64,000 bases of DNA from Candidatus Marinacidobacterales bacterium (GTDB taxonomy: Bacteria > Acidobacteriota > Vicinamibacteria > Marinacidobacterales > SMYC01): assembly GCA_965197495.1 (NCBI GenBank), contig OZ240210.1, positions 2,876,671-2,940,670 on the forward strand. Direction: 5' to 3'. Positions 1,414 to 37,026 of this stretch are shown here, one piece after another. Every line of letters begins with the position of its first letter. Position 1 is the first letter of the stretch. Both the position numbers and the translations under genes were made by a program. The notes beneath the pieces were generated by a model that saw only the letters and a program-made list of their open reading frames with translations, did no database searches and was not told the origin of the DNA.

Positions 1414-1897
1414 AAAAAAGCTCGACAACCAACTTGCTTACGCGATGAGAGTAGATGAATCGCTGACCTTCACGGAGTATTGGTCGGACCGTAGGTTCAG
1501 AGGGAAGCGTCCCCGGTGGCGCAAAGCAGCCCCAATTGTAGAGAAGTGTGGTGATAACTGCTATGCACCGACTAGCGACGGCGAGTTCCGGCAGCTGCGG
1601 TCCAGGCACTGGGATCACGGTAGAAATCGCGAGAATCGGCGGCAGAAGATGACGGACCTCGGGGGCGAGCGCGTCCTTGTCGGACGTCGGTTCTGTTACT
1701 TCGGGGGCGACGCGATTCCTTTCCCTGCTGACGTCTCCTTCCGACCACCCGCTCGGTTCAACCGTGTCAACTTCACCGACGAGGAGAGGGGCGGGCTGCA
1801 AGAATTTCTCGAGGATCTCCCTCAGGGTATCCAGGGCAAACCGAGGAACTGGCCGAAGGATGACGGGTTCTGGCGGGAAAGTGAGCGATGCGGCTAA
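1414..1897 (+). CDS. C-terminal part of hypothetical 'gene A'; its reading frame stays open upstream across the IS256 insertion point and off the window start, so the gene is split by IS256
   Basis: Removing the IS and one TSD copy gives a frame (KARPGDWIVGITPKKLDNQLAYAMRVDESLTFTEYW...) with no stop from position 1 onward. The ORF-track Met at 1445 is probably internal. Confidence 0.45.
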
Positions 1898-2736
1898 TTC
1901 TGAGCCGTAAGGGATTCGACTCATCAAGCGGTGGTTGTCCCAGTCCGATCTTCCCTGACTGCTCCATGATCGCGCTTCCGATCCCAGACAAGCGGTCCCG
2001 TGTGCGTTACCTGGATCTTTCTTGGCGTGGACGCAATCTCGGAGAGCTAGTTGCGAAACTCACTCGCGGGAAGCAGAGAAGCGACTACCGGGCCCATCTC
2101 GACCCCGACCTGAGGCGGGACATTTGGCCAAGAAAGCCAGGTTGGTGTCCAACGCTCGGTCAGATTGGAAGCGCACAGGGGCACCTCCGAAAACAGGGTG
2201 TTGGGCCCGGAGATTTGTTCCTATTCTGGGCATCATTTCGGCGAGTCGATGAGGACCTCCGATGGAAGGGCGGCACCGAGCATCACATTTGGGGCTGGCT
2301 CCAAATCGGCGATGTAGTGTCCGTGGATGAGGTCCTTCGCAACGGCGGCAAGGAATGGGGCTGGGCAATGACACATCCGCACTTGTCCTTCCCGCGCGAT
2401 CCTACGAATACGCTCTACATCGCGTCCGGTGAACTTTCACTGCCTGGGCCTCCGACTCCAGGCGCTGGCGTCTTCGATTATGTCGATGATGCTCGCCGCC
2501 TCACTGCCCCGGACGCGACGAAGCCATCGGAGTGGTCTTTGCCCATCGGATTCTTACCGAAGGGAAGACCGCCACTCAGCTATCACAAGTCGCCAGATCG
2601 CTGGTCCCAATGCGGTCAAAGGGCTCGGCTTCGCTCCGTCTCGCGTGGGCAAGAGTTTGTCCTCGACCTTGCACTGTATCCCGAGTTGATCGGTTGGTTG
2701 ACGGAGATTATCGCTGGGAGCCGAAGGACTAGGTGA
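1888..2736 (+). CDS. Hypothetical 282-aa protein translationally coupled to gene A; possible PUA-like beta-barrel segment
   Basis: It shares an ATGcggcTAA 10-nt overlap with the upstream ORF. The N-terminus reads MRLILSRKGFDSSSGGCPSP, and a GPGDLFLFW...HHIWGWLQIGDVVSVDEV segment resembles EVE/ASCH-type folds. The fold assignment is tentative. Confidence 0.45.
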   Translation: MRLILSRKGFDSSSGGCPSPIFPDCSMIALPIPDKRSRVRYLDLSWRGRNLGELVAKLTRGKQRSDYRAHLDPDLRRDIWPRKPGWCPTLGQIGSAQGHLRKQGVGPGDLFLFWASFRRVDEDLRWKGGTEHHIWGWLQIGDVVSVDEVLRNGGKEWGWAMTHPHLSFPRDPTNTLYIASGELSLPGPPTPGAGVFDYVDDARRLTAPDATKPSEWSLPIGFLPKGRPPLSYHKSPDRWSQCGQRARLRSVSRGQEFVLDLALYPELIGWLTEIIAGSRRTR

Positions 2737-3139: not shown

Positions 3140-3505
3140 TTGACAGTACCTCCGCGTGTTATTTGCTATCCGATGATGCTACGATCATCTCGTTATGCCC
3201 CGACGCAAGATACGTGTCCTTCTGGCTGGCTGGGTCAACCGCCAGCAGCAGGATGTGATCGACCACTTGCGAGAGGAGAACCGTGTGCTCCGAGCCGGGC
3301 TTCGGGGCAAGCGTCTCAGTCTCTCTGACGACGATCGGCGCAGGCTCGCCGTCAAGGCCCAGGCTTTGGGCCGCGAGGCGCTGGCCCAGATTGCGTCCGT
3401 TGCCACACCCGCTACGCTTCTGCGCTGGTACCGCTACCTCGTCGCAGCCAAGTACGATGGCAGCAAGAACCGGAGCCCAGGCCGACCTCCGAACGGCGAC
3501 GGAGG
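3140..3505 (+). pseudogene. 5' fragment (about 110 codons) of a diverged IS481-like transposase gene; no terminal IR and 3' truncated
   Basis: The stretch [33 protein letters not shown]...[26 protein letters not shown] is about 90% identical to the N-terminus of the intact transposase at 29578-30654, and homology ends near 3505. Confidence 0.7.
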
Positions 3506-3607: not shown

Positions 3608-3726
3608 TTAGTCGAGTCTCGCCATCTCTAGCGAGCCTTCCTGCGACCGATAGTAGTTCATCTCGTACTCGACGGGGGTGACATTTCCGATAGGCTCCAA
3701 GAGTCGTTGCGTGTTGTACCAATGCC
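3608..3726 (-). pseudogene. C-terminal tail (about 39 codons) of another rve-type (IS481/IS3-like) transposase, cut off by the IS481-like insertion at 3727
   Basis: The translation GHWYNTQRLLEPIGNVTPVEYEMNYYRSQEG* matches the conserved integrase C-terminal pattern (YN..R.H..L...TP.E...NYY). Upstream of it the frame runs into IR sequence. Confidence 0.5.
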
Positions 3727-5157
3727 CCCCGTCCTGTGCCAAAACTCGGCCCTTTTGAAATAGGCCATAAATCAGCAGCTTAGTGTCTGTGTTTGCGCCG
3801 GGGCCAAGGGCCGTAGGCTTTACAATCGTCTGGCCCGAGGGTGTTATCTTCAGCTCCATGATGACGTACCACGTGCAATTCCTACTGCTCGTTCTAGCTG
3901 GCTGGGTCAACCGCCAGCAGCAGGATGTGATCGACTACCAGCAAGAGGAGAACCGTGTGCTCCGAGCCGGGCTTCGGGGCAAGCGTCTCAGGCTCTCGGA
4001 CGACGAGCGGCGCAGGCTCGCGGTCAAGGCCCAGACTTTGGGCCGCGAGGCGCTGGCCCAGATTGCGTCCGTTGCCACACCCGCTACGCTTCTGCGCTGG
4101 TACCGCCACCTCATCGCAGCCAAGTACGATGGCAGCAAGAACCGGAGTCCAGGCCGACCTCCGACGGCGAAGGACATCCGTGAGCTCATTGTGCGCGTGG
4201 CGCGGGAGAACCCGACGTGGGGATATACGCGCCTGCGAGGCGCACTCAAGAACCTAGGACATGAACTCGGACGCAACACTATCAAGAGGATCCTCGCCGA
4301 GCACGTATCGCTCCTGCGCCGGAGCGGGGCAGGAGCATGTCGTGGAGCACCTTCATCAAGGCTCATTGGGGCGCCATCGCTGCGACAGACCTGTTCACCG
4401 TCGAGGTTGTGAACCCGTTCGGGCTCGTCCGCTACCATGTCCTGTTTGTCATCGATATCGCCACTCGCTGCGTGTGCATCGGTGGGATAACGTCGGACCC
4501 CAACGGGGAGTGGATGGAGCAGGTGGCAAGAAACCTCACTGACATGTGGGATGGTTTCCTCCTTGGCAAGCGATACCTCATCCACGACCGGGACCCGCTA
4601 TTCACCGAGGCGGTACGTGGGCTGTTGAGAGATTCAGGCGTGAAGCCCCTTCGCCTTCCCGCTAATAGTCCGAATCTGAACGCATATGCGGAAAGATTCG
4701 TTCTCTCCATACGTCGAGAGTGTCTCGACCGCTTCGTACCTCTCAGTGAGCGACACCTGCGCACAGCGGTACCGAATACGTAGTGCACTATCACACAGAA
4801 CGGAACCACCAAGGTCTCGGCAACGAGCTCCTCACACCTCTGCCGGCAAGCGCGAATGACGCTGGCCCCATCGTGTCGCGAGAGCGACTTGGGGGCATTC
4901 TCAACTACTACTGCCGTGCCGCGTAGATGGTCGCCGGCGACGGTAGCCCCTCGGCGGGCTCGACCGGCGTAGCGTGGAAACAGCTTCAGGAACACGCTTC
5001 GATATTCGCTCTCGACTAGGAGGTCATCTGCATGGTGACGACCCGCCCGCCCAAGACGATTGTAAAGCCCACGGCCCTTGGCCCGGTCGCAAACACAGAC
5101 ACTAAGTTGCTGATTTATGGCCTATTTCAAAAGGGCCGAGTTTTGGCACAGGACGGG
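3727..5157 (+). mobile_element. IS481-like element copy 1, about 1431 bp with roughly 110-bp near-perfect terminal inverted repeats; the transposase is inactivated by two 1-bp deletions
   Basis: It is co-linear and over 98% identical with the intact copy at 29453-30885. A G is lost near 4300 (gcacgtatcg vs gcacggtatcg) and an A near 4780 (gcggtaccgaat vs gcggtaaccgaat), which splits the ORF into 3783-4412, 4337-4783 and a downstream piece. Confidence 0.85.
3840..4925 (+). pseudogene. IS481-family DDE transposase gene with two frameshifts
   Basis: This is the comparison with the 381-aa ORF at 29509-30654 described above. Confidence 0.8.
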
Positions 5158-5589: not shown

Positions 5590-5720
5590 CGGCATCGCGG
5601 TCGGATACGTATTCCAGTTCAGCGGAAGGAGTCGCGATGAACTGGAAGACCATGCTGAGCTCGTCGTGTCCAAAAACACAAGCGAACTCAAGATCTGCGT
5701 GCCGAGACGTTTCGGATGAT
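5590..5720 (+). repeat. Fragment of the 5' region of an IS481 lineage-3 element (like 62120-62230) fused to a copy of short repeat A
   Basis: cggatacgtattccagttcagcggaaggagtcgcgATGAACTGGAAGACCATGCT matches the sequence upstream of and at the start of the transposase at 62177, and is followed by cgtcgtgtccaaaaacacaagcgaactcaag. Confidence 0.6.
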
Positions 5721-6062: not shown

Positions 6063-6497
6063 CGAATTCGAGGTTTGACCAATTCGAATTCCGCTATTCG
6101 CCTTCTCCTCAGACGCGATCTAGGCGTTAAGCGTCTTCTCATTGTCTGCGCGATTAAGCGCAAAAATGGACACGATAAGCCCCCAAATCGCCCCAAATTG
6201 CCCGTTGATGGCCTGTTTTGCTCTGTTTCTGATCGTTTCCAGCCAAGAATCGGAAGCTCCACTCGAGCCTGCCGACTGCGATAGCCGGAAAGGTGTTCCC
6301 GTCGACGAAACGTCCGCCGATGAGACGTAAAGCCTTTTGCAACAATGCGTAACGGCCGGAGCCGCCTCCGGAGGGTTTACGACACGGCCCTCTTTCAGGC
6401 GTCCAGGAGGTTGAGGTTTGCCGTATAGAAAAGCTGATTGAAGCAAATTCGATTCCGGCTCGAACGACCACCCGTCGATGATGCGTGCGTGGGCCAG
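6063..6497 (+). repeat. About 435-bp repeat C, copy 1; an inverted partner lies at 12812-13243
   Basis: The reverse complement of 12812-13243 aligns with this segment over its whole length at roughly 85-90% identity, with one indel of about 15 bp. Confidence 0.75.
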
Positions 6498-6705
6498 CAC
6501 GTGACAGAAAGTGACTCACGCCCGGCGCAGCTCGTTCGTAGCGCGCAAGGTGTCCAAGCTCGACATCGTCCAGGCTACGCTCGGGGTTCCGTTGTAGCGA
6601 CGCGGTATCGAGGAGATGGCGAAGCGCTTCGAGATCGGTGCACCCGAGCTCGAGGGCGTGGGCGACGGTCTCACGAAGCTTGTCGTATCCGTGCTTGCGC
6701 CCTCG

Positions 6706-7007
6706 TCCTGTGCCAAAACTCAGCCCTTTTGAAATAGACCATAAATCAGCAGCTTAGCGACTGGGCCAAGGGCCCTTAGGCTCTACAGTTACCCAAAACC
6801 CGCGGTCGACGTTCGAGAGCCGCGGCCGTTTCACCGAACGGCGGAGGACGGCGAGCTGCTGCCGAAGAGCGACATTGTCGAGAGCCAGCTCGCGACGAGC
6901 CTTGAAGACGGAGATGAGAGCGCGAACAAACGACGAAATCAAGCAGGCATGGTGCCGGCAGACTAATCAAGTTTGGGGCGCCCGGATGAATAAATAGAAG
7001 GCACAGG
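6706..7007 (-). mobile_element. 302-bp MITE-like element with termini GTCCTGTGCC...GGCACAGG; its left subterminal 70 bp equals the IS481-like IR, and it carries a 62-codon relic of a transposase N-terminus
   Basis: Near-identical copies lie at 17105-17413 and 18503-18788. The internal ORF reads MISSFVRALISVFKARRELALDNVALRQQLAVLRR, an HTH-type transposase N-terminus. Confidence 0.7.
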
Positions 7008-7018
7008 CGGCAGAGGCG

Positions 7019-8041
7019 ATTCACGCCACTCGTGGCAGTACGCCGCGCCTGAACCAGAACGCGCTGGTGTTTCTTGCGGCCGACAAGGTGCGGCTTCAGG
7101 ATCTCGAGGACGCGATTCGCCGGTATCTGGCGTGGGAATCCATCGTTGAGGACAAGAAGGTCCTGAACCTGGACCAGCAGCAACTCAAGCAGGCCGAAGC
7201 CCAGCAGCAAGCGGCGAACGGTACTGCGACGGCACAACTGCCTGAGACGTATCAGTGGGTCCTCGTGCCCACGCAGCGTACGCCGCAGGAGGCCATGCAG
7301 TGGCAGGTACTGAGGCTCGGAGGTCAGGATCCGTTAGCAGTAAGGGCCTCGAAGAAGCTGCGTGCGGACGAGCTGTTGCTGACGAGTCTCGGGGCCACCG
7401 TGCCCAGAAAGTACCTGGACGACATTCCGCTGTGGCGTGGAAACCACGTTGACGTGCGCCAGCTCACCGAGGATTTCGCTCGCTACCTATATCTTCCGCG
7501 CTTGGCCGATAGCAAAGTACTCGTACGGACTATCGAAGACGGCATCGGATTGCTCACTTGGCAGACCGATACCTTCGGGTTCGCAGAGAGCTTTGACGAG
7601 ACCGATGTCCGGTACCGTGGTCTCCGTGGTGGGCAGGTCCTTAGGCTCGCTGCGGGTGCGTTGGGGATGCTCGTGAGACCAGACGCCGCGCACACACAAT
7701 TGGACGCCGAGGTTCTCCCCAGCAAACCGGAGACTGGCACGAGCCCACCCACGATACCGAGCACCGACAAGTCGCCGGTAGAGCCACTAGGCAAAGCTCC
7801 GGAGCGCCTGACGCGGTTTCATGGAACGGTGCGGCTTGCCCCTGCCCGCATCGGCCGGGATGCCGGCCGGATCGGCGAGGAGCTCATCGCGCATCTCTCG
7901 GGCCTTGTCGATGCAGACGTGCAGGTGACCCTAGAGATTGAGGCGCACATGCCAAATGGCGCGCCTGAGCAGGCCGTTCGGACCGTCACCGAGAACGCGC
8001 GGACACTGAAGTTCATGAGTCAAGGGTTCGAGAAGGAGTAG
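7019..8041 (+). pseudogene. C-terminal about 340 codons of a large DUF499-like (defence-island ATPase family) gene, 5'-truncated by the MITE at 6706-7007
   Basis: The frame is open from the MITE boundary (a stop lies inside the MITE end) and reads ...NQNALVFLAADKVRLQDLEDAIRRYLAWESIVEDKKVLNLDQQQLKQAEAQ...YQWVLVPTQ. The family assignment is from memory of DUF499 C-termini. Confidence 0.5.
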
Positions 8042-8172
8042 GCTTCTCGTGAAGACCCAGAAGGAGTCCCTTTGCGGAAAATCGTGTCCTGAACAACCAG
8101 AAGAGGACGGTGGCTTCTGTCCGTCTTACCGGAAAGCTCACTCTCGAAGGGGACCGTTTTATGGGAGTAAGG

Positions 8173-8535
8173 TTAGGTGACGTGAGTATCCAAGGCAACA
8201 TCAAACCACTTCGATCGCTCGTTGAGTCCCTTCAGGTTCGTGGGTCGTGGAATCGAAGTTGCTCCGGTTCTCGGAGTCGACGTTCCTTCCTCATCAGCAC
8301 CTCCTTCGCTTTTCGAAGAACAATTCTGAGCCTCTTCATCGCCGGGAAACGGGCCTGGAACCAGACGTTCGACCTCGCACAGCTCTCCGATCAGGCGAAG
8401 CACTTCGGAGCACGCCTGCGGGTAGTGCTCGCTGGCTTCATCGAACTTCCGTTTGACGTGCGCCCAGCAATGGGCGAGTCGAAGCTCGGGGGCATCGCGA
8501 TCACTCGCTGCTTTTCTGGTGTTGTGGATGGTCAC
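8173..8535 (-). pseudogene. IS66-family transposase (TnpC) internal/C-terminal fragment
   Basis: It carries the HCWAHVKRKFDEA motif characteristic of IS66 TnpC, and no full-length ORF is present. Confidence 0.6.
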
Positions 8536-15262: not shown

Positions 15263-15559
15263 CGCTGATGCTCAGAGTGCCGACTATAATAATGATGATG
15301 GACTCGCAACCGACCTCGCATCGCCCGACAGGGACCGCAACCCGCTGACCCGGGTCTCGTGCTGGGCGCGCGGGCCGAGGTCGCGGCGCCCATGTGCACA
15401 AGCGCCTGCTTACAAGTTTTTGGAATTGCGGGTCTTGAGTTCGTTTGTGTTCTTGGACACGACGGGTTCACGCGTGTGTCTGCCCGCTGCCGACGTGACT
15501 GATACAATGGGCCGATGCGACCCAACTCGCCGAGCTAGTAGCCAAGGACAATCGATTCA

Positions 15560-16486
15560 ATGACTGATAACGACCGTGATACCCAGATGCGAATGGCGGC
15601 TTTTGAGCACGTTCGAGAGCTGCACGAAGTCCACGATCAGCTGACCGCAAACGAGTTGAAACCAGGTTTTGTTTTCGACGGCGAGCGCATCCCTCTCATC
15701 AATCCGCAACGCGGCATTTTCAAGCCGCAGCAGATGCGGTTCTTGCTTTCGATCAAGACCGTATTCCCGAGACCGGGCAGCAAAATCTGGTACGACGATC
15801 AGCGCGAAGTTCACCGCCAAATATTTGAGGGTGACGAAACGGTGGATTACGCATTCATGGGAAGAAATCCAGAGGCTGCTGACAATCGCTGGCTGCGCCA
15901 AGCGTTCGAGAACCAAATACCGGTGATCTATTTTCTTGGCATCGCGCCCGGCCGCTACCAAGCTATGCTGCCAGCATTCGTTGCAGGGTGGGACGCCGAG
16001 GCATTAAAGGCGCGCGTTGCGTTTGGAGTGCTCGGTCAAGAAGCGCTGGCGCCACCGAAGAACGTCCTGGAACGGCGCTATGCTCTGCGTTCGGTCAAGC
16101 AACGATTGCACCAGGCATCGTTTCGAGAAGCTATCATCAGTGCCTATGACGGCCGCTGCGCACTATCGAGGATACCCGAACCACTGCTACTGGACGCGGC
16201 GCATATTGTTGCGGACAAGGATGAACGGCTTGGTCAACCGGTGATCCCCAACGGAATCCCACTATCGAAAATCCATCATGCTGCCTTCGACGCGCATTTG
16301 ATTGGCATTGACCCGGACTACCGCTTGCATGTCTCTGATCGACTGCTCGGCCAGAGCGACGGCCCCATGCTCGAAGCATTAAAACGGCTCAACGGTGGAA
16401 CCATTCACCTACCCAGCCGCGTCAAGGACCGACCGGATCGAGACCGGCTTGCGCTACGCTTCGACCGCTTCAAGGCGGTGGCGTGA
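15560..16486 (+). CDS. HNH-family nuclease of the putative restriction/type-IV class, with an HNH_2-like C-terminal domain and an N-terminal domain of unknown function
   Basis: RLHQASFREAIISAYDGRCALS...LLDAAHIVADKDERLGQPVIPNGIPLSKIHHAAFDAHLIGIDPDYRL fits the HNH_2 pattern (Q..FR..V...Y...CA..G...LE.aHI.p......N.l.L....H..FD...). Confidence 0.7.
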   Translation: MTDNDRDTQMRMAAFEHVRELHEVHDQLTANELKPGFVFDGERIPLINPQRGIFKPQQMRFLLSIKTVFPRPGSKIWYDDQREVHRQIFEGDETVDYAFMGRNPEAADNRWLRQAFENQIPVIYFLGIAPGRYQAMLPAFVAGWDAEALKARVAFGVLGQEALAPPKNVLERRYALRSVKQRLHQASFREAIISAYDGRCALSRIPEPLLLDAAHIVADKDERLGQPVIPNGIPLSKIHHAAFDAHLIGIDPDYRLHVSDRLLGQSDGPMLEALKRLNGGTIHLPSRVKDRPDRDRLALRFDRFKAVA

Positions 16487-17023: not shown

Positions 17024-17104
17024 CCGGACGGCGGGGCGCGCCAGTTGGACGGAACGGATGGTCTGGAGGAGAGGTCTGCTCGGGGTCGCCTATCGCAGAA
17101 CCGC

Positions 17105-17413
17105 GTCCTGTGCCAAAACTCAGCCCTTTTGAAATAGACCATAAATCAGCAGCTTAGCGACTGGGCCAAGGGCCCTTAGGCTCTACAGTTACCCAAAACC
17201 CGCGGTCGACATTCGAGAGCCGCGGCCGTTTCACCGAACGGCGGAGGACGGCGAGCTGCTGCCGAAGAGCGACATTGTCGAGAGCCAGCTCGCGACGAGC
17301 CTTGAAGGCGGAGATGAGAGCGTGAACAAACGACGAAATCAAGCAGGCATGGTGCCGGCAGACCGGAGACTAATCAAGTTTGGGGCGCCCGGATGAATAA
17401 ATAGAAGGCACAG
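17105..17413 (-). mobile_element. MITE-like element, copy 2 (309 bp)
   Basis: It is over 97% identical to 6706-7007 and has the same embedded 62-codon ORF (17154-17342). Confidence 0.7.
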
Positions 17414-18337: not shown

Positions 18338-18400
18338 GCCCGTCGTGTCCAAAAACACAAACGAACTCAAGACCCACGCGCCGGGACGTTTCGGATTAGA
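18338..18400 (+). repeat. Short repeat A copy (cgtcgtgtccaaaaacacaaacgaactcaagacc...cgtttcggat)
   Basis: It is one of at least eight copies; the others are at 5662-5720, 15434-15466 (rc), 24323-24381, 33318-33375, 34010-34140 (rc, long form), 36803-36930 (long form) and 36962-37005. Confidence 0.7.
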
Positions 18401-18502
18401 GGTGTCTAGGCTTGGTTGTGCCTTCTATTTATTCATCCGCCAGCCCCATGGGTCGGAAGTCAGCCCTGCGGCGCGAAATACCCTGGATTCTGCGCGGATT
18501 CA

Positions 18503-18788
18503 TTTGAAATAGACCATAAATCAGCAGCTTAGCGACTGGGCCAAGGGCCCTTAGGCTCTACAGTTACCCAAAAACCCGCGGTCGACGTTCGAGAGCTGCG
18601 GCCGTTTCACCGAACGGCGGAGGACAGCGAGCTGCTGCCGAAGAGCGACATTGTCGAGAGCCAGCTCGCGACGAGCCTTGAAGGCGGAGATGAGAGCGCG
18701 AACAAACGACGAAATCAAGCAGGCATGGTGCCGGCAGACCGGAGACTAATCAAGTTTGGGGCCCGGATGAATAAATAGAAGGTACAGG
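18503..18788 (-). mobile_element. MITE-like element, copy 3, truncated at the left end; it lies next to an inverted fragment of the MITE right end at 18395-18440
   Basis: It aligns with 6728-7007, and ccttctatttattcatccgc at 18421 is the reverse complement of the MITE right end. Confidence 0.6.
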
Positions 18789-19526: not shown

Positions 19527-19616
19527 ACTTACGGCCCTTGGCCCGGCCGCAAACACGGACACTAAGCTGCTGATTTATGGTCTATTTAAGAGGGCCGAGT
19601 TTTGGCACAGGACGGG
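19527..19616 (-). repeat. Solo IS481-like terminal IR (about 90 bp) abutting the stop codon of the CotH gene
   Basis: ggcccttggcccggccgcaaacacggacactaagctgctgatttatggtctatttaagagggccgagttttggcacaggacggg is the IR, and no transposase lies to its left. Confidence 0.7.
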
Positions 19617-19621
19617 CTCGG

Positions 19622-22015
19622 TTAATCTCGTTCCCAAGTCCCGTATTCGTTCAGAGCACTCCATTCGTCGCCCCGCCGTGAACGTCCCTTGAGATTAGGA
19701 GAGAAAGGAACCGTCGAAACGGCTTCGCTGAAACTGTGTGCCGTGGGGTTCCGTGGGTCGCTTCCATCGAGGGTGTAGTAGACCTTTTCCGCTCCCGCCG
19801 GGCGACGGATGGTGATGCTGTCAGAAGCTCGCTCGAACCCCGGCGGGTCGATGGTAGGATAGTAACCATGGTTTCGAAGTGCCCGAATGAACTTTTCGAC
19901 ATTCCCGTCCATCAAGCCTAGAACGTAGTCCCGCGCTCGCTTCCAATGCACATCCCGCGTGCGGGGACGATTCTCCCGTCCAGGGGCTGCGTCGCCCCAC
20001 CGGGCCGACTCACAAAGCATCGCCGGCTCCACATAGTCCGCTAGCCTCCGAAAATTGGTTTGGTTTACATGGTCTGCAAGGGGGCCGCCATCGTAGCAAG
20101 CACGATAGACGTGATCCGCGAACTCCAGCCGGAACTCTGGGCTGTCCGCCAAAGCCATCCATAGTTGGTGTAACGCGGACGTTCCGCCGGACACGAAACT
20201 TGGCGGAACCCAAGCCCCCGCGTGCCCGTATTTATGAGAGTAGAGCCCGTAGGTTATCTCCGCATCCCAGCAGAAATACAGTCCGGCACCAGGAGGGTGA
20301 ATCCGAATCCCTCCGTACCAATTTTGCTTTCCCCAATCTCCCATGCCGGAAAACCAATTCAGCAGGATGTAGTCGCTGAACTGGGCCGTATTCAATAGGG
20401 TTTTCATCTCCTGGTACTTTGCGGGCTCCGAGAGATCATTGTCACGCGCATAACGGTAGACGGTGATATACCAGCGCGGGTGGTTCGGCTTGCCGACTAC
20501 GCCAGAATGGTTGATAGCAAACCAGTCAGCCGAGTCACCACCATAGTACGAAGCGAGAAAACGCCGGTCCGGACGCTCCACCGCGTTGTATACGCCCCAG
20601 TAAATCCCGTTCAGGTAGAGATGCACAAAAATGCCGCGCGCGGCGTTATCGCTCAAAGAAAGCTGCGAGTCCCGAACGTGTTGGTCGCGGACATAGACCG
20701 CCAACTCGCTGATATCGCCTCTTCTCGACCAGTTTTCTTGCCCACCTGCCCGCAGAACGATGGTGTTGAACTCCTTCACTGCAGATTCGGCATGGTGCAC
20801 GGCGCTCTCGAAAAAGGGGTATCTCAACATTCCCGGACCGAAGTCTTTGCTGAAGACTAGGCGGAACGATCGCTTTTCCTCGGGAAACGTCTGACTATGC
20901 GCTCTAATTCCGCAATCGACCTGGAAGCCCTCGAAGTCCGAAAACTTGCTCGGGTAGAGGAGCTCAACCGAGGCGGGACGGGTTGGTGGACCCTTATCAA
21001 TGTAGAGCCCGTAGCTCTCATTAAAGAGGTGGTCCCCATCCATGACGATGGAGAGGGTGGGAATCGATGTCAGTCCTTCCACGAACTCCAGCTGGTTGCT
21101 CGTATTCACAACATCGGGATCGATCTCGATGTCGAGATCTGCGTACGGAGCCATATTGGAGGAGCGAAACGGGGCCGGATAATCGAATGGCAGAGCCGCC
21201 TGCTCCTTCACCGTGGTCGGAAATATATAGGTATGGGTGTCGACGTTCGTGCTCCTCGCACCAGCTTTGTACGCTATGGCCCGAAGGACGGTCGTTTTAG
21301 CCACAAGAACCTTGTTGCCGACGATTCCATGACTCACGCTCGGCTTACTGCCGTCGGTGGTATAGACGATCGTTGCGCCGGGAGTGGCGGTGGTGAGGAT
21401 CACTTCGAAAGGGGTCTCATAGAAGCCGCGGTCGTGGCTGAACTTCGTATCGCCTACTGAGTGCGTCCGGCCGGTTCGGCGATGCCAATCATTGAAGAAC
21501 TCGACCGATTGCCCAACCGGTTGTGCAGGGGCGCTCGCAAGAAGAACCGGCTCTCCCCAAACCGGAACCAGTGACTGCCGATGCACCGCGCCCGAGGCGT
21601 CCAGCACAGGCCGTGCCGTGAAGCTCAGCGAGACCGTTCTCCCCTCCCACGGAGTGAGATCAATCATGCGGTCGTTCCAACGATTCCCCTCCTGTGCAGC
21701 AAGGGTCTCGCGAAACGCGCGGCTCCGCTTGTCATCGACGTCGATCTCGATCAGGAACTCTGTCTCGGGCAGACCGGCACTGGGTGTGCCTAATACGGCC
21801 ATCGAGAATTGGAGCACGGCGTTCTGCGGTACCTTTAGCGGGGACACCCACGTCGAGCCGTCCAACGCTGTTCGGGACTTTCCTTCCAACTCCACTTCCC
21901 TGGAAGGCTGAGAAGGATCGAGAAGGGAAACAGGGCGCGTTCTCGGTAAGTCGCTGCAAGCCGCTGCGGATGCTAGGAGCATCAGGACGACCAGCGTGTC
22001 GGTTCGTCTCCCCAT
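19622..22015 (-). CDS. CotH-family protein (CotH kinase-like fold) with a lipoprotein-type signal peptide and a chitobiase/hexosaminidase-C-like beta domain
   Basis: The likely start is MGRRTDTLVVLMLLASAAACSDL; the ORF-track start at 22417 adds 134 low-quality codons. It contains the CotH motifs VHLYLNGIYWGVYNAVE, FSDYILLNWFSGMGDWGKQNWYGGIRIHPPGAGLYFCWDAE and ATIVYTTDGSKPS. Confidence 0.65.
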   Translation of the reverse strand: MGRRTDTLVVLMLLASAAACSDLPRTRPVSLLDPSQPSREVELEGKSRTALDGSTWVSPLKVPQNAVLQFSMAVLGTPSAGLPETEFLIEIDVDDKRSRAFRETLAAQEGNRWNDRMIDLTPWEGRTVSLSFTARPVLDASGAVHRQSLVPVWGEPVLLASAPAQPVGQSVEFFNDWHRRTGRTHSVGDTKFSHDRGFYETPFEVILTTATPGATIVYTTDGSKPSVSHGIVGNKVLVAKTTVLRAIAYKAGARSTNVDTHTYIFPTTVKEQAALPFDYPAPFRSSNMAPYADLDIEIDPDVVNTSNQLEFVEGLTSIPTLSIVMDGDHLFNESYGLYIDKGPPTRPASVELLYPSKFSDFEGFQVDCGIRAHSQTFPEEKRSFRLVFSKDFGPGMLRYPFFESAVHHAESAVKEFNTIVLRAGGQENWSRRGDISELAVYVRDQHVRDSQLSLSDNAARGIFVHLYLNGIYWGVYNAVERPDRRFLASYYGGDSADWFAINHSGVVGKPNHPRWYITVYRYARDNDLSEPAKYQEMKTLLNTAQFSDYILLNWFSGMGDWGKQNWYGGIRIHPPGAGLYFCWDAEITYGLYSHKYGHAGAWVPPSFVSGGTSALHQLWMALADSPEFRLEFADHVYRACYDGGPLADHVNQTNFRRLADYVEPAMLCESARWGDAAPGRENRPRTRDVHWKRARDYVLGLMDGNVEKFIRALRNHGYYPTIDPPGFERASDSITIRRPAGAEKVYYTLDGSDPRNPTAHSFSEAVSTVPFSPNLKGRSRRGDEWSALNEYGTWERD

Positions 22016-22602
22016 CAAGTGTTGCGAGCTTATCAAACGCGCGTTTCTAAATGCTAGGCCAAGGGCGTGGCAAAGAGCAAAAAAGAGCGGGCTATTTTGC
22101 GAGTTTTGCAAGTCACTCCAAGAGGCCGGCCCTCGGAGGGGTTCCGTCGCATGCGCGGGGGAGATAGACCGGGTGGCGCCGACAGGCGCAAAGAAGCCAT
22201 AGGGGGCGTAACGTCCGACCGTTGTCGACGCCGGACGCGGCCCTGCTTGCTGGCCTCCCAGCTGGCCGGCGTGGACAGCGAGACCGCTGCTGTCGATCAA
22301 GATGTGCAACGGCGTCTTCTGCTTGTCCTGCGCGTACGGGGACCCCGAATCGCCGGCCACAACGTCACCCTCCCAGGGTATTGGTGTCACCTCGTTCGAA
22401 TGGGCGAGGATCTCCACGACCGCCTAGGGGCAGCCCTGGTGTTCAGAACAATAGGCCGGATATTCGAAAACAATCGCAAGAGCGAGCCTCTCCAACATTC
22501 ATAAGACGCCGGTGGCATCGTCAGGTCGACCGGTACGGAAAATCCGACGTGGCAGGTCTAAACCGCGCAATCAACGCTGGATCGACTTTTTGCGGAGCAC
22601 AG

Positions 22603-23582
22603 TTTACTGGGGCGTATATAACGCGGTGGAGCGTCCGGATCGGCGTTTTCTCGCTTCGTACTATGGTGGTGACTCGGCTGACTGGTTTGCTATCAACCAT
22701 TCCGGCGTAGTCGGCAAGTCGAACCACCCGCGCTGGTCTGTCACCATGTACCGTTATGCGCGTAAGCATGACCTCTCGGAGCCCGTAAAGTACCGGGAGA
22801 TGAAAACCCTATTGAATACAGCCCAGTTCAGCGACTACATCCTGCTGAATTGGTTTTCCGGCATGGGGGATTGGGGGCGAAAGAATTGGTACGGAGGGAT
22901 TCGGATTCACCCTCCCGGTGCCGGACTGTATTTCTGCTGGGATTCGGAGATGACCTACGGACTCCTCTATAATAAAGGGCACGCGGGGGCTTGGGTTCCG
23001 CCCGAGTTCGTGTCGGGCGGAACGTCCGTGCTACACCAACTATGGATGGCCTTGGCGGATAGCCCAGAGTTCCGGCTGGAGTTCGCGGATCGCGTCTACC
23101 GCGCCTGCTACAATGGCGGTCCCCTCGCGGACCATGTAAACCAAACCAATTTTCGAAAGCTAGCGGACTACGTGGAAGCGGCGATGTTTTGTGAGTCTGC
23201 CCGCTGGGGCGACGCGGGCCACGGAAGGGAGAATCGTCCCAGCACGCGGGATGTGCATTGGAAGCGGGCGCGGGACTATGTTCTAGATTTGATGGACGGA
23301 AACGTCGAAAGGTTCATTCGAGCACTTCGGGACCATGATTACTATCCCACGCTCGACCCGCCGGTGTTCGAACGAGCTTCTAACAGCATCACTATCCGAC
23401 GCCCGGTGGGAGCGGAAAGGGTCTACTACACCCTTGATGGAAGTGACCCACGAAACTCCACGGCACACAGTTTCAGCGAAGCCGTTTCGACGGTTCCTTT
23501 CTCTCCCAATCTCAAGGGACGTTCAAGGCGTGGCGACGAGTGGAGTGCATTGAACGAATACGAGACTTGGGAACGAGATTAA
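22603..23582 (+). pseudogene. Inverted partial paralog (C-terminal about 326 codons) of the CotH gene; no start codon and the 5' region is unrelated
   Basis: It is about 90% aa-identical to the C-terminal third of 19622-22015 (YWGVYNAVERPDRRFLASYYGG ... NEYETWERD*), and its stop is likewise followed by CCGAGCC plus an IS481-like IR. Confidence 0.7.
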
Positions 23583-23590
23583 CCGAGCCG

Positions 23591-23765
23591 GTCCTGTGCC
23601 AAAACTCGGCCCTTTTGAAATAGACCACAAATCAGCAGCTTAGTGTCTGTGTTTGCGACCGAGCCAAGGGGCGTGGGCCTTACAATCGTCTGGCCAAAGG
23701 GTGTTATCTTCAGATCTATGATGACGTACCACGTGCCATTCCTACTGCTCGTTCTGGCTGGTGAC
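23591..23765 (+). repeat. IS481-like left end (IR plus the first about 25 codons of the transposase), with no body beyond about 23765
   Basis: gtcctgtgccaaaactcggcccttttgaaatagaccacaaatcagcagcttag...ATGATGACGTACCACGTGCCATTCCTACTGCTCGTTCTGGCTGG is followed by unrelated sequence. Confidence 0.65.
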
Positions 23766-24609
23766 CTGACCTGTGCTCCGCAAAAAGTCGATCCGGCGTT
23801 GATTGCGCGTTTTAGACCTGCCATGCTCGGCTGCTTTGTGCCGGTCGACCCGACGACGCCACCTGCGTCTTAGGAACGAGGAGAGGCTCGCTCTTGCAAC
23901 TGTTTTCCAATATCCGGTCTATTGTTCTGGATGTCAATGGCAACCGAAAATTGCACACTTTTGTGGAGGGCTTCCACGCGAAGGTGACGCTCTTGCGGTG
24001 GTTGCGCTTGTCGGTGTTGGGTTGGGCGGAGGGAGCGTAGCGATCGGAGTCCAACCCAACACGCGTCGCAGATTCGCAGGACATGGCTGTCAGGACATGG
24101 CTGTCAGGGCGCGGGTCTCTCGCGACCTTGATCGGACGCGGACCGTATCAGGTTCTGGTGCTCCCGCATCCGGTTGTGCCTTCCATTTATTCATCCGCGC
24201 GCACGGAACTTGATTAGTCTCAGGCTGTGGCCGGGGAAGAACCGCAGGCTATTGTTCTGGCGCCAGGGCTGACCCTAGGCGGTGGTGGAGATCCTCGCCT
24301 ATTCGAACGAGGTGACACCAATGCCGTCCTGTCCAAAAACACAAACGAACTCGAGACTGGCGCGCCGGGCCGTTTCGATCGTCATCGCCCCGTAGCGAGC
24401 CCCAGATCTGGGGCGTGTCGGAGGCGATGTCGGCGATTCGGGTTCCCCGTACGCGCAGGGAAAACACCGTCCAGAAACGGGATGCCATGCTCCCGGGCGA
24501 AGACCCTGGATCTGGGCCTGGGGCAAGATGGAAATCCAGTAGGCCAGGGCCGCACCTGGACCAGAACTGCTAGGCGAGCTACGCTGCGGTATCCCCGGCC
24601 TCGATTCTG

Positions 24610-29205: not shown

Positions 29206-29452
29206 GTCGTGCCGATGTCGTATTGCGCCTGGTAGCGCTCGATGTTCCGCCATAAATCGGCAAGCCCGCAGTGCAAGCCAACGGGCGTGGTGCTGTTGTG
29301 AATCTCGGTAATTTGACAGCAATGGCACCGCCCGCGTGGGCGGAGGTCATCGGGGAGTGACCGAAATCGTTCGTTCACTCGAAAGTACCCCATGGACTCA
29401 TCTCCTCGGCTCCACGCCCGCGTGCGGCGTCTCACCGCGCGGCAGGCACGCA

Positions 29453-30885
29453 CCCCGTCCTGTGCCAAAACTCGGCCCTTTTGAAATAGGCCATAAATCA
29501 GCAGCTTAGTGTCTGTGTTTGCGACCGGACCAAGGGCCGTAGGCTTTACAATCGTCTGGCCCGAGGGTGTTATCTTCAGCTCCATGATGACGTACCACGT
29601 GCAATTCCTACTGCTCGTTCTAGCTGGCTGGGTCAACCGCCAGCAGCAGGATGTGATCGACTACCAGCAAGAGGAGAACCGTGTGCTCCGAGCCGGGCTT
29701 CGGGGCAAGCGTCTCAGGCTCTCGGACGACGAGCGGCGCAGGCTCGCGGTCAAGGCCCAGGCTTTGGGCCGCGAGGCGCTGGCCCAGATTGCGTCCGTTG
29801 CCACACCCGCTACGCTTCTGCGTTGGTACCGCTGCCTCATCGCAGCCAAGTACGATGGCAGCAAGAACCGGAGTCCAGGCCGACCTCCGACGGCGAAGGA
29901 CATCCGTGAGCTCATTGTGCGCGTGGCGCGGGAGAACCCGACGTGGGGATATACGCGCCTGCGAGGCGCACTCAAGAACCTAGGACATGAACTCGGACGC
30001 AACACTATCAAGAGGATCCTCGCCGAGCACGGTATCGCTCCTGCGCCGGAGCGGGGCAAGAGCATGTCGTGGAGCACCTTCATCAAGGCTCATTGGGGCG
30101 CCATCGCTGCGACAGACCTGTTCACCGTCGAGGTTGTGAACCCGTTCGGGCTCGTCCGCTACCATGTCCTGTTTGTCATCGATATCGCCACTCGCTGCGT
30201 GTGCATCGGTGGGATAACGTCGGACCCCAACGGGGAGTGGATGAAGCAGGTAGCAAGAAACCTCACTGACATGTGGGATGGTTTCCTCCTTGGCAAGCGA
30301 TACCTCATCCACGACCGGGACCCGCTATTCACCGAGGCAGTACGTGGGCTGTTGAGAGATTCAGGCGTGAAGCCCCTTCGCCTTCCCGCTAATAGTCCGA
30401 ACCTGAACGCATATGCGGAAAGATTCGTTCTCTCCATACGTCGAGAGTGTCTCGACCGCTTCGTACCTCTCAGTGAGCGACACCTGCGCACAGCGGTAAC
30501 CGAATACGTAGTGCACTATCACACAGAACGGAACCACCAAGGTCTCGGCAACGAGCTCCTCACACCTCTGCCGGCAAGCGCGAATGACGCTGGCCCCATC
30601 GTGTCGCGAGAGCGACTTGGGGGCATTCTCAACTACTACTACCGTGCCGCGTAGATGGTCGCCGGCGACGGTAGCCCCTCGGCGGGCTCGACCGGCGTAG
30701 CGTGGAACAGCTTCAGGAACATGCTTCGATATTCGCTCTCGACTAGGTGGTCATCTGCATGGTGACGACCCGCCCGCCCAAGACGATTGTAAAGCCCACG
30801 GCCCTTGGCCCGGTCGCAAACACAGACACTAAGTTGCTGATTTATGGCCTATTTCAAAAGGGCCGAGTTTTGGCACAGGACGGGG
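29453..30885 (+). mobile_element. IS481-like element copy 2, intact (1433 bp), with about 110-bp terminal IRs beginning CCCCGTCCTGTGCC
   Basis: It has a complete single transposase ORF, and its IRs are near-perfect inverted copies over about 110 bp (e.g. ...cagcagcttagtgtctgtgtttgcgaccgg / rc of ...ccggtcgcaaacacagacactaagttgctg). Confidence 0.85.
29578..30654 (+). CDS. IS481-family DDE transposase with an integrase core domain
   Basis: It has an HTH N-terminus ([25 protein letters not shown]), a DDE core (LFVIDIATR...IHDRD...FTE) and an rve C-terminus ([17 protein letters not shown]). The start may be 29509 or the MMTYH Met at 29578. Confidence 0.85.
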
Positions 30886-32993: not shown

Positions 32994-33440
32994 AATAGCC
33001 TATGTATCAATGTGTATCAAATCATAAAAGGCTTTAGACATGCCTACATATTGCAACCCAAAATTAGCCTCTCGGCGTCCCTAAAGACGCGTAATCATTG
33101 GGGATTCACACTGTCAGTGGGTTCATTCGACCAAGGAACTTCAGTCTAAAACAAAGAAGTGACTCGACCTCGGCGGGGACCTTCGGTGTTATCTAAAATG
33201 GCTGGTGCTCGACGATTGAATGCCGGTCCAGGTCGGACTGTACCCTTCGCAGATGATGGACATGAGAGGGGCAATTTTTACAGTTTTTACAGTATCTCCC
33301 AGGAGGCGGTGTGCGCTCCCGTCGTGTCCAAAAACACAAACGAACTCAAGCCCCGCGCACCGGGCCTTCGGTCACTACCCTCCCCATTCTCCGAAACAAG
33401 AACTCTGAATCCGTAGACCTGAGATGCCCGTCCCTGTGAA

Positions 33441-34009: not shown

Positions 34010-34140
34010 AGCTGGATCGGCGTCCTCATGACCGAGGATTCTAGCTTCCATTGGCCAACCAAGCGTATACACGTCTATTCCGAAACAGCCCGGCGAGCCG
34101 CTCTTGAGTTCGTTTGTATTTTTGGACACGACGGGCCACC
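34010..34140 (-). repeat. Repeat A long form (about 130 bp), inverted relative to the copy at 36803-36930
   Basis: The reverse complement reads ccgtcgtgtccaaaaatacaaacgaactcaagagcggctcgccgggctgtttcggaatagacgtgtatacgcttggttggccaatggaagctagaatcctcggtcatgaggacgccgatccagc, which is about 88% identical to 36803-36930. Confidence 0.7.
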
Positions 34141-34181: not shown

Positions 34182-36824
34182 TTAGAAGTTGAGGAGGGCC
34201 TTCACGCCCAAGGTTCGCGGTGGGTTGGTCAGGAAGAAGATCCGGGCGCGGGTTCCGCGCTCGCGGTCGAACGACAGAAGAGCCCGCTCGTCGGTCAGGT
34301 TGTTGATGTACAACGACACGTCCCACTTCTCGCGACGAACGCCGACGCGCAGGTTGAGGAAGTTGTAGGCCGGCAGCTTGGGATCGTATGTGAAGGTATC
34401 CTGCGTAAGCGGGGCACCGATGGTGTTGGCTCCGAAAGAGAGCAGGTCCAACGTGCCGAGGTCCTGGTCGCCGACTTGGGTAAAGCGGTCGCCGACGTGC
34501 TGGTAAGTAGCGGTCACGTAGGGCACCGACTCCCCCGTCTGCCACTGGTAGGTGGCTGCGGCGGCAAGCTGGAACCGGGGCACGGTCGGCAGCAGCCGCC
34601 CACCCACGATTCCCGTTGCCGAGGTCGGCTCCACGGTGGACTGCAGTTTCGAATCGTTGATGCTCGTGGAGATGGCAAAGTCGAAATTGCTGCTCGGCGC
34701 GAGCTCGAAATCCAACTCGACACCGGTGCTGCGGGAGTCGGGGACGTTGAAGATGAGGCGGGAGGAACAGGATCCGGCGGTCACCGTCGCCTGGAGGTCG
34801 CTGATGTCCATGTAATACACGGCCACGTTCACGGAACCGCGGTTGTTCAGAAGCCTGGACTTGGTGCCGACCTCGTAGTTCCAGGTCGTCTCGTCCTCCC
34901 AGTTCTCCCGGCCGCCGAAAGTGGCGCGGTCCTCGGGAGTGCACAAAGGCACGTTGAGCGGGTCGTTGATGCCGCCGAGCCGGAAGCCCTTCGAGACTTG
35001 GCCGTTGAGGATGGTCTGGTCACTCAGATCGTAGCTGAGAATCACGCGCGGCGCCACGCCGTTGGCTGTGGTGGAGCCGGGCTGCGACACCAGGGAGACA
35101 CCGTTGTTGTCGTTACCGAAGATACCGTCGAAGCTCTGCTCCTTGTCCTCCGAGAAACGGTAGAAGCGCAGGCCGCCGGTGAGGCGGAACCGGTCGGTTA
35201 TGGACACGGTCGCTTCACCGAAGAGCGCGAACTGGTTGAGCTTGTAGCCGAGGTCTGAGAAGAACAGGCTGTCCTTCGGCGCCCGCAGTCCTTGCGTGGG
35301 GATCCCGGTCAGATCCTCGAAGCCGGTCACCGGCAGGTTCTGGCCGTAGTCGCGGTCGGTGTAGCTGTAGAAGCCGCCGCCCACCCACTGGACGCGGTCG
35401 CTGTCGCCCGACAGGCGTAGCTCCTGCGTGAAGACGTTCGCGACGGTGGCGTCAAACAGCGGCGTGTCGAGGGTGTACACCTCCTCCGGCAGGCCGATGC
35501 TCCCGCCCGTGATGCTGGCGCCCAGCGCGGTGGTGTCGCGTATCACCAGAACGTCGCGATAGATATAGGAGGTGATCGAAGTGAGCACGACATTACCGAA
35601 GTCGTAATGGAAATTCACGTCGGCGAGCACGAAGTCATCGGTGAAGTCTTCCTGGAGCTGGACGAACTGCTCGCGCTCACCAAACGTGACGGCGGGCCGG
35701 GTGGTGGTGAACGGGTTCGCCAGGATGTTGAACTCGTCGACGCGGTTCCAGCCGTCCGTCTCCATCCTCTGATAGATGATGCGCGGGGTGATCGCGAACT
35801 GATCGTTGGGTGCTATCGTGACTGCTACCCGCCCCCCGTAGCGTTTGCCGGTGTTGACGTTGTCGTCGATGCTGAGGTCCGGCCGAACCTCGCCGATGAA
35901 GCCGGGGACCCGGGTGTAGTAACCCACGACGCGGACGGCAGCGGTGTCGCTGATGGGCGCGTTGAAGCCCAACTTGACGTTGCCTCCCGGGCTACCAGTA
36001 TTCGTCACGCCACCGCCAAACTCGGCAAACCCTTCGGTCACACCCAGCTCCGGGTAGTTGCTGATGTAACGGACCGTTCCCGAGAGGGAGCCGGAGCCGA
36101 ACAGCGTTCCCTGCGGGCCCCGCAGCACCTCGATGCGGTTCACGTCGAACAGGTCGAGGTCGGGCGTGAACAGTGAGAGGGAGATCACGGACTCGTCCAG
36201 GTACACACCGACCTGTTCCTTGACCCCCGGCTGATCGCGCACGATCTGGCCGGCGGAGATACCTCGCATCGCGACCTGGCTCTGGCCGGGGCCCAGGCTT
36301 TGTACGGTGAACCCGGCTACGTTGGCAGCCACGTCTTCGATGGTCTGAGCGCCCCGGTCGCGCAGGACATCCTCGGTCGGTGCCGCCACCGAAAACGGAA
36401 CGTCGTGCACCAACTCCTCGCGCTTGAGGGAGGTGACTGTGACCTGTTCCGCGAACGGCGCGACCGCGAGGATGACGTCCACGGTCAGGATTGTGCCGGC
36501 TTCAAGGGTGAGGTCCCTTCGGGTGTGCTCGGCAAAGCCCTGGAGCGTTACTGTCAGGGAGTAGATGCCGGGGGCCAGGCTAATGGAGTAGCTGCCGTCG
36601 CTTGAGGTTGTGGCCGCACGTCGGGCGTTGGTTGCCTGGTTAGTGATCGTAACCGCAGCGCCCGGCACGAGAGCACCGAGTGTATCGCTCACTTTGCCTA
36701 TGATACGTCCCTCCGAAGACTGGGAGTAGCCGGGCAGGCCGTACAGCACGGCAGCCAGTACCACGAAGCTAAGAAACGAAAAGCGGCCCATACCTGATGT
36801 CACCCCGTCGTGTCCAAAACACAA
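34182..36824 (-). CDS. TonB-dependent outer-membrane receptor with an N-terminal carboxypeptidase-regulatory-like (CarbopepD_reg) domain
   Basis: It has a signal peptide, a SEGRIIGKVSDTLGALVPGAAVTITNQATNARRAATTSSDGSYSISLAPGIYSLTV domain, plug-domain motifs and an 880-aa barrel with a C-terminal ...GVKALLNF. Confidence 0.8.
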   Translation of the reverse strand: MCFGHDGVTSGMGRFSFLSFVVLAAVLYGLPGYSQSSEGRIIGKVSDTLGALVPGAAVTITNQATNARRAATTSSDGSYSISLAPGIYSLTVTLQGFAEHTRRDLTLEAGTILTVDVILAVAPFAEQVTVTSLKREELVHDVPFSVAAPTEDVLRDRGAQTIEDVAANVAGFTVQSLGPGQSQVAMRGISAGQIVRDQPGVKEQVGVYLDESVISLSLFTPDLDLFDVNRIEVLRGPQGTLFGSGSLSGTVRYISNYPELGVTEGFAEFGGGVTNTGSPGGNVKLGFNAPISDTAAVRVVGYYTRVPGFIGEVRPDLSIDDNVNTGKRYGGRVAVTIAPNDQFAITPRIIYQRMETDGWNRVDEFNILANPFTTTRPAVTFGEREQFVQLQEDFTDDFVLADVNFHYDFGNVVLTSITSYIYRDVLVIRDTTALGASITGGSIGLPEEVYTLDTPLFDATVANVFTQELRLSGDSDRVQWVGGGFYSYTDRDYGQNLPVTGFEDLTGIPTQGLRAPKDSLFFSDLGYKLNQFALFGEATVSITDRFRLTGGLRFYRFSEDKEQSFDGIFGNDNNGVSLVSQPGSTTANGVAPRVILSYDLSDQTILNGQVSKGFRLGGINDPLNVPLCTPEDRATFGGRENWEDETTWNYEVGTKSRLLNNRGSVNVAVYYMDISDLQATVTAGSCSSRLIFNVPDSRSTGVELDFELAPSSNFDFAISTSINDSKLQSTVEPTSATGIVGGRLLPTVPRFQLAAAATYQWQTGESVPYVTATYQHVGDRFTQVGDQDLGTLDLLSFGANTIGAPLTQDTFTYDPKLPAYNFLNLRVGVRREKWDVSLYINNLTDERALLSFDRERGTRARIFFLTNPPRTLGVKALLNF

Positions 36825-36930
36825 ACGAACTCAAGACCCACGCGCCGAGACGTTTCGGATGAGACATGTCTACGCTTGGTTCGCCAATGGAAGCTAGAAC
36901 CCTCGGTCATGAGCACGCCGATCCAGCCCT
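36803..36930 (+). repeat. Repeat A long form, plus a second short copy at 36962-37005
   Basis: This is the alignment described under 34010-34140. Confidence 0.7.
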
Positions 36931-37026
36931 TGACAGGGGCATCTTCGTGTACACACTGGCGCGTCGTGTCCAAAAACACAAACGAACTCAAGACCCGCCT
37001 GGGCTGCAACAAGCAGGTGCAGATGG

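Follow-up and report, generated by a model that had tools for sequence, protein, structure and literature searches.

A probable relic of the defense gene hmaC at the end of a chimeric insertion sequence-derived repeat in a Candidatus Marinacidobacterales genome

How did the last third of a large defense gene come to lie against the end of a short repeat, and is what remains still a gene? The question is raised by an open reading frame (ORF) at 7067-8041 in a 64,000-nucleotide (nt) stretch of the genome of a Candidatus Marinacidobacterales bacterium (contig OZ240210.1, positions 2,876,671 to 2,940,670). We call this whole stretch the window, and positions given without a contig name are window positions. 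The original prediction, made from the sequence alone, described the ORF as the C-terminal part of a DUF499-like defense ATPase, left behind after the insertion of a 302-bp miniature inverted-repeat transposable element (MITE) and a subsequent deletion. Judged by its sequence, the fragment is HmaC, the DUF499-type AAA+ ATPase of the three-gene, restriction-modification-like antiphage system known as Hma or Type-1 BREX-related (BR), and the similarity is far beyond chance. The interval 7007-8041 is very probably a nonfunctional relic of hmaC that was truncated at the end of a mobile element.

Identity and extent of the fragment

The ORF at 7067-8041 is present on the + strand as described, starts with GTG, and encodes 324 amino acids (aa). 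It is also called as an ORF mechanically, and its product is 100% identical to the database protein P0001, which is encoded on a genome contig of 9,225,684 bp. The reading frame is open upstream of 7067 as far as 6998, with 20 codons to 7007 and 23 codons to the stop. This stop, a TAG at 6995-6997 (+ strand), closes the frame inside the right terminus of a repeat of ~300 bp, where the original prediction had placed it; the 16 codons that it counted back to the boundary are in fact 20, and its 340-aa translation is 344 aa long from 7007. Homology with full-length relatives starts at the end of the repeat, with tblastn alignments beginning at 7004-7010. The relic matched residues 749-1111 of a 1112-aa homolog (L002:3846-7184) with 46% identity in tblastn, and a 565-aa piece of contig L001 with 60.5% identity. 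At the start of the relic, AAEAIHATRGSTPR aligned with AAAILESRGTSPR of the full-length homolog. The 3′ hmaC relic (7007-8041, + strand, 344 codons) therefore corresponds to residues ~749-1111 of the 1112-aa homolog, which is only the last ~31-38% of an HmaC protein, and the ATPase domain is absent.

A sequencing or assembly artifact might also create a false junction of this kind, and the genome of the window and its relatives seem to be long-read assemblies, which show frameshift-split genes. For comparison, proteins that cluster with the relic at 90% identity or more were collected, and they are on four contigs (L007-L010) from four metagenome samples (ERZ21829562, ERZ25072076, ERZ25074053, and ERZ28763718). 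The window and three independent metagenome assemblies from different samples (L008, L009, and L010) share one identical sequence at the junction between the repeat and hmaC. Therefore, the probability of an artifact is negligible, and the frame upstream of 7067, which the original prediction had allowed might be closed in corrected sequence, is not closed.

Pfam gave only noise on the fragment (matches to Spt20 and SelA were rejected as such), and the family became clear only after the search with PADLOC. The PADLOC HmaC model PDLC00662 matched the fragment with an E value of 4.1e-73 and 245 bits, and residues 1-342 aligned to profile positions 584-940 of 941. The match covers the C-terminal 357 positions of the model. 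DUF499 models performed poorly: the PADLOC model gave a weak match (E 4e-4 over 88 residues), and NCBIfam NF042962 (DUF499_antiphage) gave 21.4 bits with a cut-off of 1200 bits. The weak local similarity to the DUF499 model sits at profile positions ~557-642. Pfam PF04465 (DUF499), the profile that the original prediction had proposed for checking the translation, had no match to the fragment at E≤1. A database search with the relic found 2910 homologs at E≤1e-5, of which the best other than the relic itself was 64% identical, and many members of the HmaC family were 57-66% identical over the whole fragment. The longer homologs in the database carry PF04465 in their N-terminal and middle parts and adjoin DUF1156 methylases. 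The assignment to a DUF499-like defense ATPase was thus right in kind, as the full-length relatives indicate, but the fragment belongs to HmaC and not to the DUF499/DUF1156/DUF3780 branch.

The Hma (helicase, methylase, ATPase) system was proposed by Payne et al. in 2021 (PMC8565338). HmaA is a helicase-nuclease that protects against phage T4, and the activity has been tested in Halomonas (PMC11232893). A 2026 survey renamed the Hma group "Type-1 DUF499-centred BREX-related systems" (PMC12839542). According to this survey, the Type-1 ATPase is frequently fused to an N-terminal HEPN domain, and its C-terminus is a variable region with winged helix-turn-helix (wHTH) and RRM-like parts that is thought to sense invaders (PMC12839542). 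DUF3780 is confined to Type-2 systems (PMC12839542). Since HmaC is of Type-1, no DUF3780 partner is expected here, and the label for the family should read Hma / Type-1 BR instead of DUF499/DUF3780.

The operon partners of HmaC are HmaB, a DUF1156 N6-adenine methylase, and HmaA, a Swi2/Snf2 helicase-nuclease. Relatives of HmaC adjoin HmaB/DUF1156 methylases and SNF2 helicases, and an N-terminal HEPN_Swt1 domain is often present. This gene context agrees with the description of Hma/Type-1 systems in the literature. Canonical loci are on two contigs. On contig L002, HmaB (E 7.5e-304) is followed by the 1112-aa HmaC. On contig L005, a SNF2 helicase and a DUF1156 methylase (HmaB, 1.1e-254) are followed by pieces with HEPN_Swt1, DUF499, and the C-terminal region, and these pieces are one gene broken by frameshifts. 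Three proteins on long contigs (P0054, P0096, and P0105) were considered as stand-alone C-terminal genes and were rejected, as each comes from a full-length gene that frameshifts or gaps have broken up, and the HEPN/DUF499 part lies immediately upstream. More generally, frameshifts or gaps on the metagenome or metagenome-assembled genome (MAG) contigs L001, L005, and L006 have cut full-length HEPN-DUF499 (HmaC) genes into pieces, and many of the database "proteins" of 350-600 aa matching the relic are such pieces. Protein length distributions from long-read or MAG assemblies are therefore misleading. A scan of a genome contig collection found only distant relatives with 31-46% identity, and a scan of metagenome contigs with 7024-7055 found no match.

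The remainder of the system was not found in the window. No hmaC N-terminus was found when the full-length HmaC was used as a tblastn query over the whole 64 kb, and this agrees with the original prediction that about 700 N-terminal codons are absent, as homology begins at residue 749. The N-terminal STAND/ORC-Cdc6-like AAA+ domain is not in the fragment, where the match starts at profile position 584, and the fragment has no HEPN domain. The partner methyltransferase gene is absent as predicted: tblastn with HmaB over the same 64 kb found nothing, and Pfam scans of the large ORFs in the window found no DUF1156 and no SNF2 or other helicase (tblastn was run with HmaB but not with HmaA). These large ORFs are transposases and housekeeping genes. 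DUF3780 was not found among the window ORFs scanned with Pfam, in which small ORFs were not covered exhaustively. The fragment thus qualifies only as a piece of an HmaC family member; it is a pseudogene fragment and not a system.

The repeat at the truncation point

The repeat next to the relic extends from ~6704 to 7006, close to the limits of 6706-7007 given in the original prediction, and its copies are 301-313 bp long. The segment 6701-7006 matches 17101-17413 with 96.5% identity, and 6728-7007 matches 18503-18788 with 95% identity. The second full copy (17101-17413, + strand, 313 bp) has different flanks on both sides and is bounded by a possible 4-bp direct repeat, ACCG, which could be a target-site duplication. 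The third copy (18503-18788, + strand) is truncated at its left end. All three copies in the window have distinct flanks. No target-site duplication was found around the copy at 6704 or around the copies in L009 and L010.

On sequence evidence, the repeat is chimeric, and its two arms come from the ends of different IS481-family insertion sequences (ISs), which we call IS-A and IS-B. The left arm (6704-6763, or from 6701; no strand assigned) is the outer ~60-63 nt of the ~104-nt terminal inverted repeat of IS-A. It is 92% identical to both ends of the IS-A copies at 3724-5157 and 29450-30884, and also to solo IS-A ends at 12155, 19616, 23588, and 37882. The right arm (6764-7006, − strand) is the 5′ end of IS-B, with the terminus TGTGCCTTCTATTTATTCATCC and the first ~51 codons of the transposase at 6790-6942 (− strand). 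When a 339-aa transposase (L007:8832-9851) was used as a tblastn query, its residues 1-51 aligned to 6942-6790 with 70.6% identity (E 5e-17). The terminus TGTGCCTTCTATTTATTCATCC recurs at 24171-24224, 18417-18448, and 37733-37757. The two ends of the repeat, which come from two different IS481-family elements, share just an 8-bp inverted match (CCTGTGCC/GGCACAGG). Pfam and NCBIfam searches with the internal ORF of the repeat found nothing.

As is characteristic of a MITE, the repeat is short, occurs in several copies with different flanks, and has no intact transposase, as only the 51-codon remnant is present. Since two full copies have the same boundaries and the same internal junction in different flanks, the chimeric repeat probably moved as a unit, and the term "MITE-like" is acceptable with caveats. 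The "302-bp MITE" of the original prediction is therefore a real multicopy repeat, but it is chimeric and does not look like a classical MITE, in which the inverted repeats are matched.

The IS-A copy at 29450-30884 (+ strand) is intact and encodes a 381-aa IS481-family transposase with HTH_32 and rve_3 domains (NCBIfam IS481, 1.6e-28). It is a candidate source of a transposase that would act on the left end of the repeat. The second copy at 3724-5157 is frameshifted. An assignment of IS-A to IS630-like elements, suggested by helix-turn-helix matches, was dropped because the intact copy has rve_3 and its best NCBIfam match is IS481. Just outside the frameshifted copy, 3217-3503 is a 287-bp copy (94%) of an internal IS-A segment (corresponding to 3889-4174 and 29615-29900) and encodes residues ~36-128 of the IS-A transposase. 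Furthermore, 19531-20604 and 22603-23674 form an inverted duplication of ~1.07 kb with 90% identity that involves genes with CotH/CHB_HEX_C domains (ORFs of 931 aa at 19622-22417, − strand, and 356 aa at 22512-23582, + strand), and each copy of the duplication ends at an IS-A terminal repeat.

To the left of the repeat, the flanking DNA is not hmaC. The segment 6516-6703 (− strand) is a 3′ fragment of istA of the IS21 family: tblastn against annotated plasmids matched istA (IS21 family transposase) with 38.5% identity over 97% of the query (E 4e-6), and Pfam and NCBIfam searches with the ORFs of the left flank found no match. Further to the left, 6064-6507 is repeated at 13233-12793. Since the left flank is istA and not hmaC, a simple insertion is insufficient, and the element must have become linked to foreign DNA in at least one additional event.

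Near-identical strains and the origin of the relic

In the strains represented by L007-L010, the DNA to the right of the relic shows a substitution divergence from the window of just ~0.1-0.3%. All of the related strains have the relic and the genes to its right (a 169-aa ORF and a DUF5916 gene) in the same order and with almost the same sequence, and only the left side varies. A constant right side with a variable left side fits in situ erosion from the left. The same pattern bears on the possibility that the fragment arrived already truncated, as a passenger between IS elements or in a composite transposon, so that no working Hma was ever at this site in the lineage. The relic does lie in an IS-dense mosaic of IS256, IS481-like, IS21, IS4/IS5-type DDE, and IS110-like fragments, the closest intact-family sequences are just ~60-64% identical to it, and a relative with an intact copy was not found. 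However, the variation is confined to the left side, and no right-hand transposon boundary is marked after 8041. Arrival as a passenger is thus improbable.

The relic is truncated in all four contigs, and the intact DUF499 locus that the original prediction had proposed to look for at the syntenic position in close relatives was found in none of them. L008 has the same junction as the window and the same left context, with 99.94% identity over 18 kb. In L009, the junction is identical and the left flank is different, with a continuous 159-aa ORF that runs toward the element. L010 has the identical junction and part of the L009 flank, and 181 bp beside the left end of the element are absent; in L009 these 181 bp belong to the continuous 159-aa ORF. 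L007 lacks the chimeric element. In this strain, a complete IS-B-like element lies directly against the relic at window position 7040, which is 33 bp further in, and the left context contains unrelated ALGX/MBOAT genes. In none of the contigs L007-L010 did tblastn find an hmaC N-terminus within 10 kb of the relic. An ORF 8 kb from the relic in L010 (L010:18503-19720, + strand, 405 aa) was considered as the hmaC N-terminus and rejected, as tblastn was negative; its protein has a C-terminal HEPN_Swt1 domain and matches the PADLOC candidate PDC-M34B (4.4e-14).

The junction between the element and hmaC is thus fixed in the window and L008-L010, while the DNA at the left end of the element was variably lost or replaced. 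The 181-bp difference between L009 and L010 is the pattern expected of a deletion adjacent to the end of an element. These strains lend support to the insertion followed by deletion that the original prediction had proposed, and the left side of the locus is subject to a multi-step erosion that is still ongoing. As for the sequence of events, the hmaABC island would still have been intact in an ancestor, and hmaC would have been hit near codon 748 by an insertion of the chimeric IS481-derived element or of the IS-B from which it derives. Element-adjacent deletions or rearrangements from the left (IS-A-type) end, or recombination among the many IS-A ends, would then have eliminated the partner genes along with two-thirds of hmaC, from its 5′ side. 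Conceivably, the chimeric element is itself an active agent that erases the defense island by nested adjacent deletions in one natural population.

Within this reading of an in situ relic, the 5′ part of hmaC was probably deleted. It is rather unlikely, though conceivable, that homologous recombination between dispersed copies of the repeat or of IS-A ends inverted or translocated the DNA, so that the 5′ part of hmaC, possibly with hmaA and hmaB, is now elsewhere next to another copy. Substrates for such recombination are abundant, as the many IS-A ends of 60-105 nt and the three repeat copies amount to at least 10 such copies in the window. The copy at 6704 has unrelated flanks and no target-site duplication, and the left contexts of near-identical strains are wholly different. 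On the other hand, neither the 64-kb window nor the DNA up to 10 kb from the relic in L007-L010 contains an N-terminal hmaC fragment, and the difference between L009 and L010 is a simple loss of 181 bp at the element end, which is deletion-like.

The 14-nt unit GACGAGCTGTTGCT at 7367-7380 (+ strand) is present in a single copy in the window and in L007. This unit is tandemly expanded in two strains, with four exact copies in L010 and three exact copies after a garbled stretch in L009. In L010, the expansion creates an in-frame TGA stop (..DELLLTSCC*), and in L010 and L009 the ORF of the relic is split into 109 or 113 aa and 221 aa. As the expansion interrupts the frame in both strains, the relic is not kept intact across the population. 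The relic also departs from 17 of 158 highly conserved columns of the family, the most among the 36 sequences compared, which is weak evidence. No sigma-70-like promoter was found in 6500-8400, and no evident ribosome-binding site precedes the GTG at 7067. With regard to the wHTH and RRM-like parts described for this region, an AlphaFold2 model of the relic was of low confidence (mean predicted local distance difference test score, pLDDT, 66.7; predicted template modeling score, pTM, 0.37). Foldseek with this model found no match in the PDB at E≤1e-3, and a sequence-profile search of the PDB with the relic found no match. The HmaC tail is very probably nonfunctional and is decaying, with no known activity of its own.

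Could the 324-aa ORF instead be a functional stand-alone gene for the C-terminal sensor region of HmaC (wHTH/RRM-like), expressed from the end of the element? No interruption is present in the 344-codon frame of the window and L008, nor in the frame of L007, and the relic keeps all 72 invariant columns of the 36-sequence alignment, which it does by definition as it is included in the alignment. However, the frame has a premature stop in L010 and is disrupted in L009, neither a promoter-like site upstream nor an evident ribosome-binding site is present, and the partner genes were not found. Moreover, the homologs on long contigs that seem to stand alone are frameshift-split full-length genes. 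A functional gene of this kind is very improbable, and there is just as little chance that the sensor-like region was domesticated as a stand-alone protein that is read from the end of the element and serves, for instance, as the decoy or modulator of a complete Hma/BR system encoded at another genomic site.

Several points weigh against a decayed relic that formed by insertion and deletion. We infer the order of the events; the searches found neither a strain with an intact hmaC at this site nor any intact hmaC with more than 64% identity. The rest of hmaC may be preserved in another part of the 9.2-Mb genome, as the searches covered the 64-kb window, and this would mean rearrangement and not deletion. 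The 344-codon frame of the window strain is uninterrupted, and annotators called a protein (P0001) in it. Substitutions between the strains are too few to test selection by comparing synonymous and nonsynonymous changes, with 2-5 in the relic and 3-4 in the neighboring gene. Finally, the deviation at conserved columns may partly reflect the use of the relic as the query by which the other sequences were chosen.

Surroundings and comparison with known systems

The first ~39 kb of the window are an IS-rich mosaic, and the housekeeping genes (S1, TypA/BipA, and the transfer-messenger RNA, tmRNA) are in the part from 39 to 64 kb, where transposase ORFs are also present (45308-47038 and 61093-62049). 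The tmRNA gene is at 62422-62771 (− strand; Rfam RF00023, 173 bits). Near the left end of the window, 1445-2736 (+ strand) contains adjacent genes annotated as "nucleotide modification associated", Nmad2 (E 1.6e-22) and Nmad3 (E 8.3e-76). They adjoin an IS256-family transposase at 109-1317 (− strand), and the trio is conserved in L008. These genes may be part of another DNA-modification or defense module. An ORF at 15560-16486 (+ strand) encodes a 308-aa HNH endonuclease (Pfam HNH_2; PADLOC HNH, 1.6e-23). Its cluster at 90% identity has 370 members, including a protein from a Candidatus Accumulibacter MAG, which suggests recent horizontal spread. Furthermore, a family of short repeats of ~35-80 nt, which is unrelated to the chimeric element, has at least eight copies on both strands with 83-97% identity (5656-5719, 15428-15470, 18338-18418, 24324-24377, 33318-33366, 34056-34138, 36804-36881, and 36957-37001). 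This family could be another IS end or an element like the repetitive extragenic palindromic (REP) sequences.

A pseudogene of a defense gene in an IS-rich region is of an already known kind and is ordinary. The locus adds one more case of insertion sequences eroding a defense gene, in keeping with the rapid turnover known for defense islands, and its importance alone is small. The near-identical strains, with four left contexts, nested loss at one end of the element, and a new stop, give a clean, small snapshot of the speed of erosion. In annotation, the 324-aa ORF should be flagged as an hmaC pseudogene fragment instead of a hypothetical protein.

Among known defense ATPases, the classical DUF499 proteins (PF04465/NF042962, in the DUF1156-DUF499-DUF3780 loci of Type-2 systems) are distant relatives with the same overall architecture, and the HmaC profile fits the fragment ~70 orders of magnitude better than theirs. 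BrxC/PglY of BREX has an N-terminal core of an ORC/Cdc6-like AAA+ domain and a wHTH in common with HmaC, with a presumed role in scanning or sensing (PMC12839542). The C-terminal region of BrxC is a coiled coil, unlike the C-terminus of HmaC. Since the C-terminus is the sole part kept here, no testable feature links the relic to BrxC.

MITEs and adjacent deletions mediated by IS ends belong to the general biology of insertion sequences. The repeat described here resembles them in that a short, non-autonomous, multicopy element has distinct flanks and a gene is truncated at its terminus. It differs from MITEs in that its ends derive from two different IS481-family elements, with an uncertain target-site duplication. 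The nested loss of DNA beside one end in sister strains is as in adjacent deletions at IS ends.

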